Below are positions 1 to 5,348 of a stretch of 15,988 nucleotides of DNA, one piece after another. How positions within the stretch are numbered: the stretch's first letter is position 1; every line of letters begins with the position of its first letter. Source of the DNA: an uncultured archaeon (GTDB lineage Archaea; Asgardarchaeota; Lokiarchaeia; Sigyniarchaeales; SOKP01); contig CAZOYD010000070.1 of assembly GCA_964583985.1 (NCBI GenBank), positions 1 to 15,988 on the forward strand, read 5' to 3'. The notes under the pieces are model-generated. The model saw only the letters and a program-made list of their open reading frames with translations. It made no database searches and was not told the DNA's origin. A program made the translations under genes and the position numbers.

Positions 1-2028
1 GAGGAGTTAATCATTTCAGATAGAAAAAAATTATGGGAACCTTCAGAAGAATGGAAAAAGAACGCTGAAATTACGAAGTTTATCCAGAAAGTAAATAAGG
101 AATTCGGTCAAAACATTCAAGGTGGTAAAGACCTCTATAGATGGTCCGTAGAAAAGATCGAAGATTTTTGGGCGGCTATGTGGGACTTTGGAGGCATCAT
201 AGCTTCCAAAAAATATGATAAAGTTGTTGAAGATCTAAGTGTTTTCCCAGGTACCAAATGGTTTCCTGGAGCAAAATTAAATTTTGCCCAAAACCTGCTC
301 AAGTATAAAGATGATAAATTAGCTTTTATTTTTCAAGGAGAAACCAAGGTTTCAAAACAAATCACGTATGCCAAACTGAATCAAACCGTAGCTCGCTTAG
401 CGAAATCTCTCAAGGAGATGGGCGTTAAAGTGGGAGATCGAGTCGTGTCCTATATTCCAAACTTGATCGAAACTCCTACTGCCATGTTAGCTACTGCTGC
501 CATTGGAGCGACGTGGGCCTCATGTGGAGCAGAATTGCAACCGAACGCCGTGATAGATCGGTTTGGACAAATTGAGCCAAAAGTACTCTTTACGGTTGAT
601 GGGTATTTCTATAGGGATCAAGAGTTTAATATCACTGAGAATGTAAAAGCTGTGGTTGAGGCTATTCCTTCAATTGAAAAAGTGGTGGTGGTATCTTACA
701 TTACGAATGGAAGACCAGATATAAGCCACATTCCAAATGCGATACATTGGGACGAGTTTATCTCAAAAGAAGAGAACCTCACTCTTGAATTTGAACAATT
801 ACCCTTTGAACATCCCTTGTACGTGATGTTTTCATCAGGTACTACGGGCAAACCTAAGTGCATGGTTCAAAGCGCTGGGGGTATATTGATCAATCATTTA
901 AAAGAACTCATCTTATTTACTGATTGTAAAGGAAGCGATGTCATAAATTATATTACTGCGCCTTCATGGATGATGGTATAAGTTAACCTTATATCAGCCA
1001 AAATGTGGAACTGGCTTATCAGTGCCTTAGCAACGGGCGCAACAATATTTTTGTATGATGGAAATCCCTTATATCCAGATCCTTTAAGATTTTTCGAGCT
1101 AATCGAAAAGCATAAAGTATCAATATTTGGAACCAGTGCAGCCTATCTTCATTACTTAATGGGTCTTGGGGTTAAACCTGGAGAGAAATTTGATTTAAGT
1201 GCATTAAGAGAAATTTCACAAACGGCATCTACATTATCTCCTGAAGGATTTGAATTCGTATATCGGGATATCAAAAAAGATTTGTTTTTCAATTCTATCA
1301 GCGGAGGTACGGACATTAATGGATGTTTTGCTGGGGCAATACCAATTTTACCCGTTTATTCTGGGGAATTACAAGGTCGTGCGTTAGCTATGAAAGTCGA
1401 ATCTTACAGTGGCAAAGCAGAACCAATTGAAGATGAACAAGCGGAACTTGTATGTGAAGCACCCTCACCCTCAATGCCAACTCATTTTTGGGGCGACGAT
1501 AAAAACATGACAAAATATAAAGCCGCTTACTTTGATTATTATAAGGATATAGGCAAGAATGTATGGCGACACGGGGATTATATCGTTATTCACAGCGATA
1601 CGGGAGGGATTACCTTCTGGGGGCGATCGGATGCGGTTCTTAAACCAAGCGGAGTGCGCATAGGAACTGCAGAAATTTATAATGTCGTAGAACAATTGCC
1701 GGAGATTGCTGATAGTTTGGTAATTGGCCAACAATATGAAGGAGATATCCGAATTGTGATGTTTGTGCTTTTAAAAGAAGGGTATAAATTAACTGATGAA
1801 TTAAAAACCAAAATACGACAGACTTTACGTGAAAAAACAAGTCCAAGGCACGTTCCAAAATTAATATTTCAAGCACCCCCAGATGGCATACCATATACTT
1901 TTAGTAATAAGAAAGTTGAGATTGCTGTTACGAAAATCATTCATGACATGGAAGTAGCTAATCGCGGAGCTCTTAGAAATCCAGATTCACTTGATTTTTA
2001 CGAGGAAATGAAAGAAAAACTAAATTAA
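1..2028 (+). CDS. Acetoacetate--CoA ligase (acetoacetyl-CoA synthetase, ANL superfamily); two exons, <1/13..972 and 1003..2028
   Basis: Frame +1 is open from base 1 (EELIISDRKKLWEPSEEW...DLYRWSVEKIEDFWAAMW), well upstream of the ORF-track ATG at 178. Family motifs: WFPGAKLNFAQNLL, AMP-binding loop MFSSGTTGKPKC, SISGGTDI, WRHGD, GRSDAVLKPSGVRIGTAEIY, SPRHVP, KKVEIAV, ALRNPDSL. The two ORF-track pieces share a frame, and removing 30 nt gives WMMWNWL and about 660 aa. Confidence 0.93.
973..1002 (+). other. Putative bulge-helix-bulge (BHB) intron, 30 nt, within the acetoacetate-CoA ligase CDS
   Basis: Insert ATGGTATAAGTTAACCTTATATCAGCCAAA has an in-frame TAA (979-981). It forms a 9-bp stem 974-982/988-996, a 3-nt bulge 971-973, a central helix 967-970/997-1000, a 3-nt bulge 1001-1003, and exon-exon pairs 965-966/1004-1005. 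Excision gives TGG ATG|ATG TGG AAC TGG. Confidence 0.75.
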
Positions 2029-2332
2029 TTTTATTTTTATTATTTTTCTAATTAAACTCTTTTTCTAGGTAAACTATTTTAATAATTATTTAACATATCA
2101 CGCATCAAGTTCATTCCTAAATAAATATCATAACCCACTCCGTCCCATTCACTATCAGTACCTTTTACTTGACCTAGAATCATACTTAAATTTTCATCAG
2201 TTAGAATTTCCTTACATAAAAAATTTTAGAAATAAAAGAAGATATACGGTTCATTATCCTTAATAAAAAAGAGAATTTTATTTGTTGTTATTTACTACTC
2301 AAATTATTTTGTACAATTAGTGGATAAATTTA

Positions 2333-2806: not shown

Positions 2807-2962
2807 TAATATTTCAAGCAGCCCCAGAAGGCATTTCTTATACTTAAGAAAGTTGAAATTGACATTACAAAGATTATTCATGAAATGGAAATCGCTAATC
2901 GAGGTGTTTTAAGAAACCCCGAATCTCTTGATTTCCACATGGAAATGAAGGACAAGCTTCAA
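2807..2962 (+). pseudogene. Degenerate remnant of an acetoacetate-CoA ligase 3' end
   Basis: Aligns with 1862-2025. It reads IFQAAPEGISYT, then an 8-nt deletion (TTTAGTAA) creates a frameshift and stop, then KKVEIDITKIIHEMEIANRGVLRNPESLDFHMEMKDKLQ. The intact copy reads IFQAPPDGIPYTFSNKKVEIAVTKIIHDMEVANRGALRNPDSLDFYEEMKEKLN. Confidence 0.9.

Positions 2963-3116: not shown

Positions 3117-5348
<2,232 letters not shown>

Follow-up and report, generated by a model that had tools for sequence, protein, structure and literature searches.

How could a gene that is broken within its conserved core motif by a short insert with an in-frame stop codon still give rise to a working enzyme? The question is raised by the acetoacetate-CoA ligase (AACS) gene at the start of the window, as we call the whole stretch of DNA that was analysed, 15,988 nucleotides (nt) of contig CAZOYD010000070.1 (assembly GCA_964583985.1) from an uncultured archaeon. 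Comparison with related loci indicates that the insert at window positions 973-1002 is most probably a 30-nt mini-intron of the bulge-helix-bulge (BHB) type, spliced from the AACS pre-mRNA by the endonuclease EndA and the ligase RtcB; the cutting and joining themselves we infer. EndA-dependent mRNA splicing had been proposed in the initial annotation of this DNA, and the comparative tests favour it: the site is conserved, the RNA shows compensatory changes, the gene is under selection and is the sole copy, and both enzymes and sister inserts are found in the genome. The assignment to an Asgard archaeon, made in the same annotation, agrees with Promethearchaeota as the source given for the closest homologs.

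The interrupted ligase gene and its relatives

The AACS gene occupies window positions 1-2028 on the plus strand and consists of two open reading frames (ORFs) in a common frame, 1-981 and 1003-2028. At its 5' end the gene runs off the contig (window base 1), with a loss of a few codons at most. When the two halves were aligned to the NCBIfam profile NF002937 (acetoacetate-CoA ligase), the N-terminal half ended and the C-terminal half started at profile position 320, so that exactly 30 nt are surplus. These 30 nt, ATGGTATAAGTTAACCTTATATCAGCCAAA, lie inside the WMMWNW motif of an otherwise intact gene, the junction reading CCT TCA TGG ATG / ATG GTA TAA GTT AAC CTT ATA TCA GCC AAA / ATG TGG AAC TGG. 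The description of the WMMWNWL motif as split by exactly 30 nt with an in-frame TAA was thus borne out by both the sequence and the profile alignment. The parts of the gene are as follows.

1-972, plus strand: exon 1 of AACS, ending ...PSWM; NF002937 positions 3-320, E 3.9e-110; frame open from base 1
973-1002, plus strand: putative 30-nt mini-intron in the register of the BHB rule; absent in 18 orthologs, 30 nt long in all 24 variants
979-981, plus strand: in-frame stop codon inside the putative intron; a stop in 24/24 variants (TAA 22, TAG 1, TGA 1)
1003-2028, plus strand: exon 2 of AACS with its stop codon, starting MWNWL; NF002937 positions 320-654, E 2.9e-131; ratio of nonsynonymous to synonymous substitution rates (dN/dS) about 0.05

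Four excision registers (start 970 to 973, with the ends moved in parallel) give an identical product because ATG is repeated at both ends of the insert, and the BHB rule selects the register 973-1002. Joining 972 to 1003 yields TGG ATG ATG TGG AAC TGG, closes the profile at position 320 and restores TGGATGATGTGGAA as found in intronless orthologs; the cuts 972/973 and 1002/1003 had been predicted to regenerate WMMWNW, and the joined sequence does so. All 18 species representatives checked first carry TGGATGATGTGGAA without interruption. No second copy of the 30-mer was found in the genome of the window, and the insert is therefore not a multicopy repeat.

The half-length protein search returned many products of 341-344 residues starting with MWNWL, at 74-91% identity. 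Their contigs, which came from metagenome-assembled genomes at NCBI and from ENA and JGI metagenomes (one contig being 1.8 Mb long), carried a 30-nt insert at the matching site. Products of 341 residues were labelled 'hypothetical protein' or 'partial', which fits the suspicion that annotation pipelines mis-call such genes. Altogether 24 distinct insert variants were obtained from independent assemblies, all at a common site and all of 30 nt, and an assembly artefact is excluded. A pattern search through 399 genomes of the phylum located the insert in 20, all of them within the family of the window (20/134) and spread over seven genera; it was not found in the 265 genomes searched outside that family. 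The uninterrupted junction is present in 74 of the 134 family genomes, and only one genome (G205) has both forms, with one intron-bearing and one intronless AACS junction. In the other 19 of the 20 carriers no uninterrupted AACS junction exists besides the interrupted one. Two candidates were discarded in the course of these searches. P0070, a protein starting MMWNWL that looked like a distant split form, was a scaffold-gap artefact with NN, and the matches of the loose pattern TGGATG N{21,51} ATGTGGAAYTGG in genome and metagenome contigs were mostly due to chance, those at L123, L141 and L198 being real among the matches listed.

Both halves of the gene are open in every one of about 30 intron-bearing loci. 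Intron-bearing genes have dN/dS values of 0.082 (exon 1) and 0.052 (exon 2), intronless genes of 0.084 and 0.046, with dS saturated at about 1.9. In the genome of the window, which is estimated to be 100% complete, AACS is a single-copy gene. By these measures AACS appears to be functional, with both halves under strong purifying selection. The early argument that there is no pseudogene decay agrees with the open halves and with dN/dS values equal to those of intronless orthologs; with 24 variants and dN/dS of 0.05-0.08, the insert is neither unique to a strain nor accompanied by relaxed selection.

Predicted fold of the insert and constraint on its RNA

The fold considered here consists of the following elements, and every pair named for it in the initial annotation (inner stem, central helix, bulges and outer helix) exists in the sequence.

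962-966, plus strand: 5' strand of outer helix h, partner 1004-1008; 76% of cells paired, with a constant U.U mismatch
967-970, plus strand: 5' strand of the central helix, UGGA (exon), partner 997-1000 GCCA (intron); the pairs U-A, G-C and G-C invariant in 25 sequences
971-973, plus strand: 5' bulge UGA, predicted cut 972/973; geometry read from the sequence, cut rule from PMC2738675
974-996, plus strand: inner helix h' (974-982/988-996; 9 bp, one G-U) with loop UUAAC at 983-987; 95.1% of cells paired, 5/9 pairs changed on both sides
997-1002, plus strand: 3' end of the putative intron, GCCAAA, which supplies the 3' strand of the central helix and, with 1001-1002, two of the three bases of the 3' bulge; 96% mean pairwise identity
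1001-1003, plus strand: 3' bulge AAA, predicted cut 1002/1003; geometry and cut rule as for the 5' bulge

In the proposed pathway, exon UGGA (967-970) would pair with the intron 3' GCCA (997-1000) to form a central helix flanked by the two 3-nt bulges and closed by the 9-bp intron hairpin on one side and a short exon-exon helix on the other. A heterotetrameric (alpha-beta)2 endonuclease would then cut after the second base of each bulge, and RtcB would ligate the exons to encode ...PSWMMWNWL... in a protein of about 660 residues. The predicted junction of the spliced mRNA is ...CCTTCATGGATG joined to ATGTGGAACTGG..., and the released 30-nt intron would probably be circularised, with the circle junction ...CAGCCAAA joined to ATGGTAT....

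The variants were compared in an alignment of 25 distinct 61-nt sequences. Compensatory changes occur in five of the nine pairs of the inner stem, 95% of its cells being paired; the observed covariation score was reached by none of 500 shuffles, and slid controls paired at 29-49%. Alignment of orthologs, which had been suggested as a check, therefore gave both presence or absence at one site and compensatory changes in the stem. The intron has a mean pairwise identity of 81.5%, as against 37% at the four-fold sites of the exons, and within it the identity is 96% for the 3' GCCAAA, 81% for the stem and 61% for the loop. The invariant intron bases (A973, U974, G975, C995, A996, C998, C999, A1000 and A1001) adjoin both bulges and include the intron strand of the central helix, and the spacing of bulges and helices is invariant across the 25 sequences. 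At the fourth position of the central helix there are 23 cases of A.G, one of A-U and one of A.A; among the 24 variants position 997 is G in 22, U in one and A in one, and the natural variant G997U has a full 4-bp Watson-Crick central helix while G997A does not.

Chance fits to such a fold were estimated from 24,459 genomic hairpins with a stem of at least 8 bp. The flanks were BHB-compatible by chance in 6.3% of them when pairing was required for no less than 3/4 of the central and 2/3 of the outer helix. Under a stricter demand, by which the central helix again had to reach 3/4 and the outer helix had to form its first two pairs, the share was 2.9%. By a rough calculation, not a tool result, a chance fit that also includes cuts matching the boundaries set by homology would come to well under 1%.

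The exon flanks differ as well. The upstream codons CCC and TCA are found in 21 and 22 of 24 intron-bearing alleles, against 4 and 4 of 17 intronless ones; this choice reinforces the outer pairs C963-G1007 and A966-U1004, and intronless alleles vary freely. Co-transfer of the flanks together with the intron would produce the same picture. Within about 12 codons of the junction, in window 955-1020, intron-bearing alleles also have synonymous codons in common (GCG CCC TCA ... AAC ... ATC) that intronless alleles do not share. The shared codons would reflect either selection acting on the exonic portion of the BHB or co-conversion with the intron.

Splicing enzymes, sister inserts and competing explanations

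Both enzymes required by the proposed pathway are encoded in the genome of the window (G000). EndA is represented by two PF01974 matches of 100 and 67 bits, an alpha subunit with the catalytic Tyr/His/Lys (in the region of C4:51753-51977) and a beta paralog without them (in the region of C3:71349-71597), and RtcB by a match of 557 bits. The alpha and beta pair is a predicted (alpha-beta)2 arrangement, and Asgard archaea have an (alpha-beta)2 endonuclease that owes its broad specificity to an L1 loop (PMC5829648). Further inserts sharing the 4-bp helix, the two 3-nt bulges and the hairpin were found by direct reading in three other genes.

G000:C2:24757-24787, minus strand: insert in Rpo1N, GHFGH/31 nt/IELARPV, frame-shifting; direct reading
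G000:C1:127776-127805 (register +/-1), minus strand: insert in the catalytic motif of RNase HII, DEAGR/30 nt/GPV, with an early TAA; direct reading
G000:C64:4237-4266, minus strand: 30-nt insert in the leucyl-tRNA synthetase LeuRS after residue 144; Pfam tRNA-synt_1 on both sides

In the LeuRS insert all four pairs of the central helix form (CUAU/AUAG), and both bulges are AAA. Only a single GHFGH site is present in a six-frame translation of the genome, and the Rpo1N insert shifts the frame within a universal motif of an essential enzyme, so that removal at the level of the RNA or of the ribosome must exist here. One more candidate, at C31:34232-34261, remained unverified, as a family match (VWA_CoxE) was obtained for exon 1 only.

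The tRNA-Thr(UGU) intron of the same genome forms a clean canonical BHB and fits the cut rule; it is the only such call made by ARAGORN. That program found only 22 tRNA genes despite the completeness estimate of 100%, 13 of them with called introns, many oddly placed. The low count fits heavily interrupted tRNA genes that are overlooked by standard finders. As a positive control the ARAGORN intron calls were unreliable.

Several observations weigh against the splicing explanation. Apart from A970.G997, the central helix is limited to three Watson-Crick pairs, making this a relaxed BHB, as the initial annotation had cautioned with regard to that mismatch and to a weak outer helix; the U.U mismatch of the latter is present as well. 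In the RNAfold minimum-energy fold of 955-1015 the inner stem is kept and the BHB is not drawn (z-score -0.84), and RNAalifold keeps the 9-bp hairpin with a different outer pairing and no BHB; thermodynamics by itself does not single out the BHB. Covariation in the central helix is impossible, its exon strand being the invariant Trp codon UGG and the A of ATG, and its intron strand having an invariant CCA. It is likewise impossible in the outer helix, whose exon strands are fixed by coding. Covariation therefore cannot test the helix that defines the BHB, because its exon strand cannot vary. A genome-wide scan for BHB motifs had also been proposed as a check, and its outcome was divided: three sister inserts came to light by direct reading, but the scan itself gave no excess over controls with shifted cuts, neither when filtered by ORF continuity (3,617 matches vs 3,515-3,842) nor with strict hairpins (71 vs 50-71). 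This lack of excess in the ORF-based scan arises because hairpins at the junctions of adjacent genes swamp any signal, and the scan carries no weight as evidence. No full-length protein identical to the spliced product was present among the 240 homologs retrieved. Finally, translational bypass, which is discussed below together with two other explanations, would likewise predict the invariant AUG...AUG, the stop codon found in every variant and the hairpin located at the first AUG.

A stop in every insert and an AUG at the beginning of exon 2 in every variant could mean that nothing is spliced and that the enzyme is split: ORF 1 would end ...WMMV, ORF 2 would start at AUG 1003, and the two chains would assemble into an active ligase, the hairpin serving translational coupling or mRNA stability. 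Purifying selection on both halves is likewise predicted by this arrangement. We consider it improbable, since removal of exactly 30 nt regenerates an invariant motif and since the break falls within a conserved core motif and not at a domain boundary. The extra codon that ORF 1 would gain (976-978) varies between Val, Ile, Ala and Lys, tracking the RNA pairing and not a protein constraint, and no Shine-Dalgarno-like purine run was read in the 21 nt upstream of AUG 1003. The invariant CCAAA would have no role, and in Rpo1N and RNase HII, where the inserts shift the frame or deprive exon 2 of a start codon, a split enzyme would be unworkable.

Programmed translational bypassing, known from phage T4 gene 60 and from the 'byps' of yeast mitochondria, would require the ribosome with peptidyl-tRNA-Met to leave AUG 973-975, slide over 27 nt and land on AUG 1003-1005. 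We know of no case of it in archaea, and the Rpo1N (CAU ... UAA before AUC) and RNase HII (AGA ... ACA) inserts have BHB geometry and yet no matching landing codon. Nor does it predict the invariant CCAAA, which is complementary to exon UGG. The AACS insert resembles T4 gene 60 in that matched codons flank the gap, with a stop near the take-off site and a hairpin at it: the take-off and landing AUG codons are invariant in all variants, the stop lies two codons past take-off in 24/24 variants by way of TAA, TAG or TGA, and the conserved hairpin begins at the take-off codon (from 974). The LeuRS insert has matching codons too, AAA/AAA. Unlike in T4 gene 60, there are sister inserts without matched codons and a conserved CCAAA that bypass leaves unexplained, and we rank it as a minor rival, very improbable for AACS.

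That the insert is the footprint of a mobile element, or an insertion giving immunity to an endonuclease, which inactivated AACS, is scarcely credible: the in-frame stop within the core motif, the close relative without insert and the relic of a LAGLIDADG-like gene next door would agree with a disabled gene, but the selection data from the sequences contradict it, both halves having stayed open in about 30 loci despite saturated dS with dN/dS equal to that of intact genes, the insert being conserved well above neutral sites, and the interrupted gene being the sole AACS copy in 19/20 carriers.

The EndA/RtcB-spliced mini-intron thus remains the preferred explanation, and it can be set beside known systems. 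In its succession of helix, 3-nt bulge, 4-bp helix, 3-nt bulge and helix the AACS element is like the BHB introns of archaeal pre-tRNA and pre-rRNA, which are cut by EndA and joined by RtcB. Unlike them it would have an mRNA as substrate, and the exon strands of its helices are constrained by codons and not by tRNA structure. A BHB intron in the cbf5 pre-mRNA of Crenarchaeota was reportedly described by Watanabe in 2002. This intron, in the gene of a pseudouridine synthase, is cut between the second and third bulge bases, and it was then the sole confirmed mRNA intron of archaea (Yokobori 2009, PMC2738675). The AACS element shares with it a short BHB-type intron in an archaeal coding sequence, the same predicted cuts, a relaxed motif, a heteromeric endonuclease and a patchy presence and absence among relatives. 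It differs in that AACS is a metabolic ligase and not an RNA-modification enzyme, in the Asgard phylum, and in that the intron is only 30 nt long, in phase 0, with a conserved in-frame stop and one of several in the genome; its splicing, unlike that of cbf5, is a prediction from sequence.

In the searchable literature no report was found of BHB introns in Asgard protein-coding genes, and a 2026 preprint dealing with tRNA introns in Asgard archaea says nothing of mRNAs. For splicing of an archaeal coding sequence by tRNA-splicing enzymes only cbf5 (Crenarchaeota) was found there, the sole further mRNA case being a 5'-untranslated region substrate in Haloferax. Here a gene of metabolism, from the archaea most closely related to eukaryotes, appears to depend on the tRNA-splicing machinery. 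If so, gene callers would mis-annotate such genes as split or partial, as happens here, metabolic reconstructions of Asgard archaea would undercount functional genes, and protein-only, endonuclease-based mRNA splicing would be routine in the gene expression of these archaea.

Recombination around the site and the LAGLIDADG-like neighbour

In the gene tree the intron-bearing alleles stand on deep branches, and at least seven changes of state are required. We infer that the intron has long been present in a single Promethearchaeota family, where it was repeatedly lost or exchanged via homologous recombination. Two pairs of near-identical strains, each with members that differ in intron presence, are informative in this respect. 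Across the gene, save for a tract that surrounds the intron site, the window is 98-99.7% identical to the syntenic JGI contigs L299/L300 (region compared, L299:175-5172), and downstream they hardly differ; within the tract, at spliced positions 600-1680 (1.1 kb; window 601-1710), the identity to L299 is 87.6%. Between L309 and L310 the identity is about 99.5%, apart from about 30 nt upstream and about 130 nt downstream of the site, which differ by about 20%. These diverged tracts mean that homologous recombination with a divergent allele, and not a clean insertion or deletion, changed the intron state. The tracts of the window and of L299 are equidistant from L301, and sequence distances do not resolve the direction of the exchange.

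Next to the AACS gene of the window, 15 nt past its stop codon, lies a gene remnant with two TAA stops within the match.

2043-2180, minus strand: C-terminal relic (about 46 codons) of a gene resembling a LAGLIDADG endonuclease; 63% identity to residues 333-378 of the L023 neighbour by tblastn, E 3e-10

The intronless sister L299 shares this relic, a hint at loss of the intron in the sister. Elsewhere the gene is intact, with 378 residues, for example at L311:149-1249, and in L023-L025 it stands tail-to-tail with AACS. It has a match to Pfam LAGLIDADG_3 of 23.6 bits (cut-off 22.5), and the family is matched in six of seven members. The members have acidic residues at the ends of both motifs, with E204 and D307 invariant. 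A structural model of the neighbour (predicted local distance difference test score, pLDDT, 68) had as its ten best Foldseek matches LAGLIDADG endonucleases or maturases, among them the bI3 maturase, I-AniI, I-DmoI and I-Tsp061I, save for one WhiA transcription factor; a profile of the LAGLIDADG-like proteins gave no significant match to PDB sequences. Judged by this model, the intact neighbours have a double LAGLIDADG fold, which holds for the relatives and not for the relic in the window.

The broader LAGLIDADG-like family is multicopy in these genomes. The five closest orthologs in the 134 genomes all adjoin an intron-bearing AACS gene, four downstream and convergent and one upstream in tandem, and none adjoins the 74 intronless AACS genes of the family. 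Intact orthologs beside intron-bearing AACS were seen in G244, G212, G173, G206 and L023-L025; G244 has two intron-bearing AACS copies, each adjoining an intact LAGLIDADG-like gene. This arrangement is no more than suggestive of a homing-like partnership between intron and LAGLIDADG-like gene, and the relatedness of the genomes weakens the count.

Mobile archaeal rRNA introns encode LAGLIDADG homing endonucleases, such as I-DmoI and I-Tsp061I, and in 'collaborative homing', as with psbA of cyanophages, an intron cooperates with a free-standing endonuclease gene. The AACS element is like these in that a BHB-type intron is tied to a protein of LAGLIDADG fold, and the presence or absence of the intron is set, as in homing systems, in diverged tracts resembling co-conversion. 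Unlike in the homing rRNA introns, the endonuclease-like gene is not part of the intron but stands beside AACS at a distance of about 1 kb, and in the window it is only a relic. A tentative extension of the splicing explanation, possible though doubtful, is that the mini-intron and the free-standing LAGLIDADG endonuclease beside AACS together make up a two-part mobile element. The endonuclease would cut intronless alleles at the conserved WMMWNW-coding site, and the 30-nt BHB intron would interrupt the target and shield its carrier; during repair the intron and its flanking exon sequence would be copied into the cleaved allele, at times together with the endonuclease gene. On this view the window would represent a late stage, in which the intron was kept because it is spliced and the endonuclease decayed to a relic. 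If true, an archaeal mRNA intron with no room for an endonuclease of its own would be undergoing homing. The recombination tracts and the endonuclease-like neighbour make gain and loss of the intron directly testable.

Further downstream, at window positions 2843-2959 on the plus strand and beyond a cold-shock gene, an orphan copy of the last ~39 AACS codons was seen, 74% identical to residues 302-340. It looks like the scar of a past rearrangement or of a cassette insertion.

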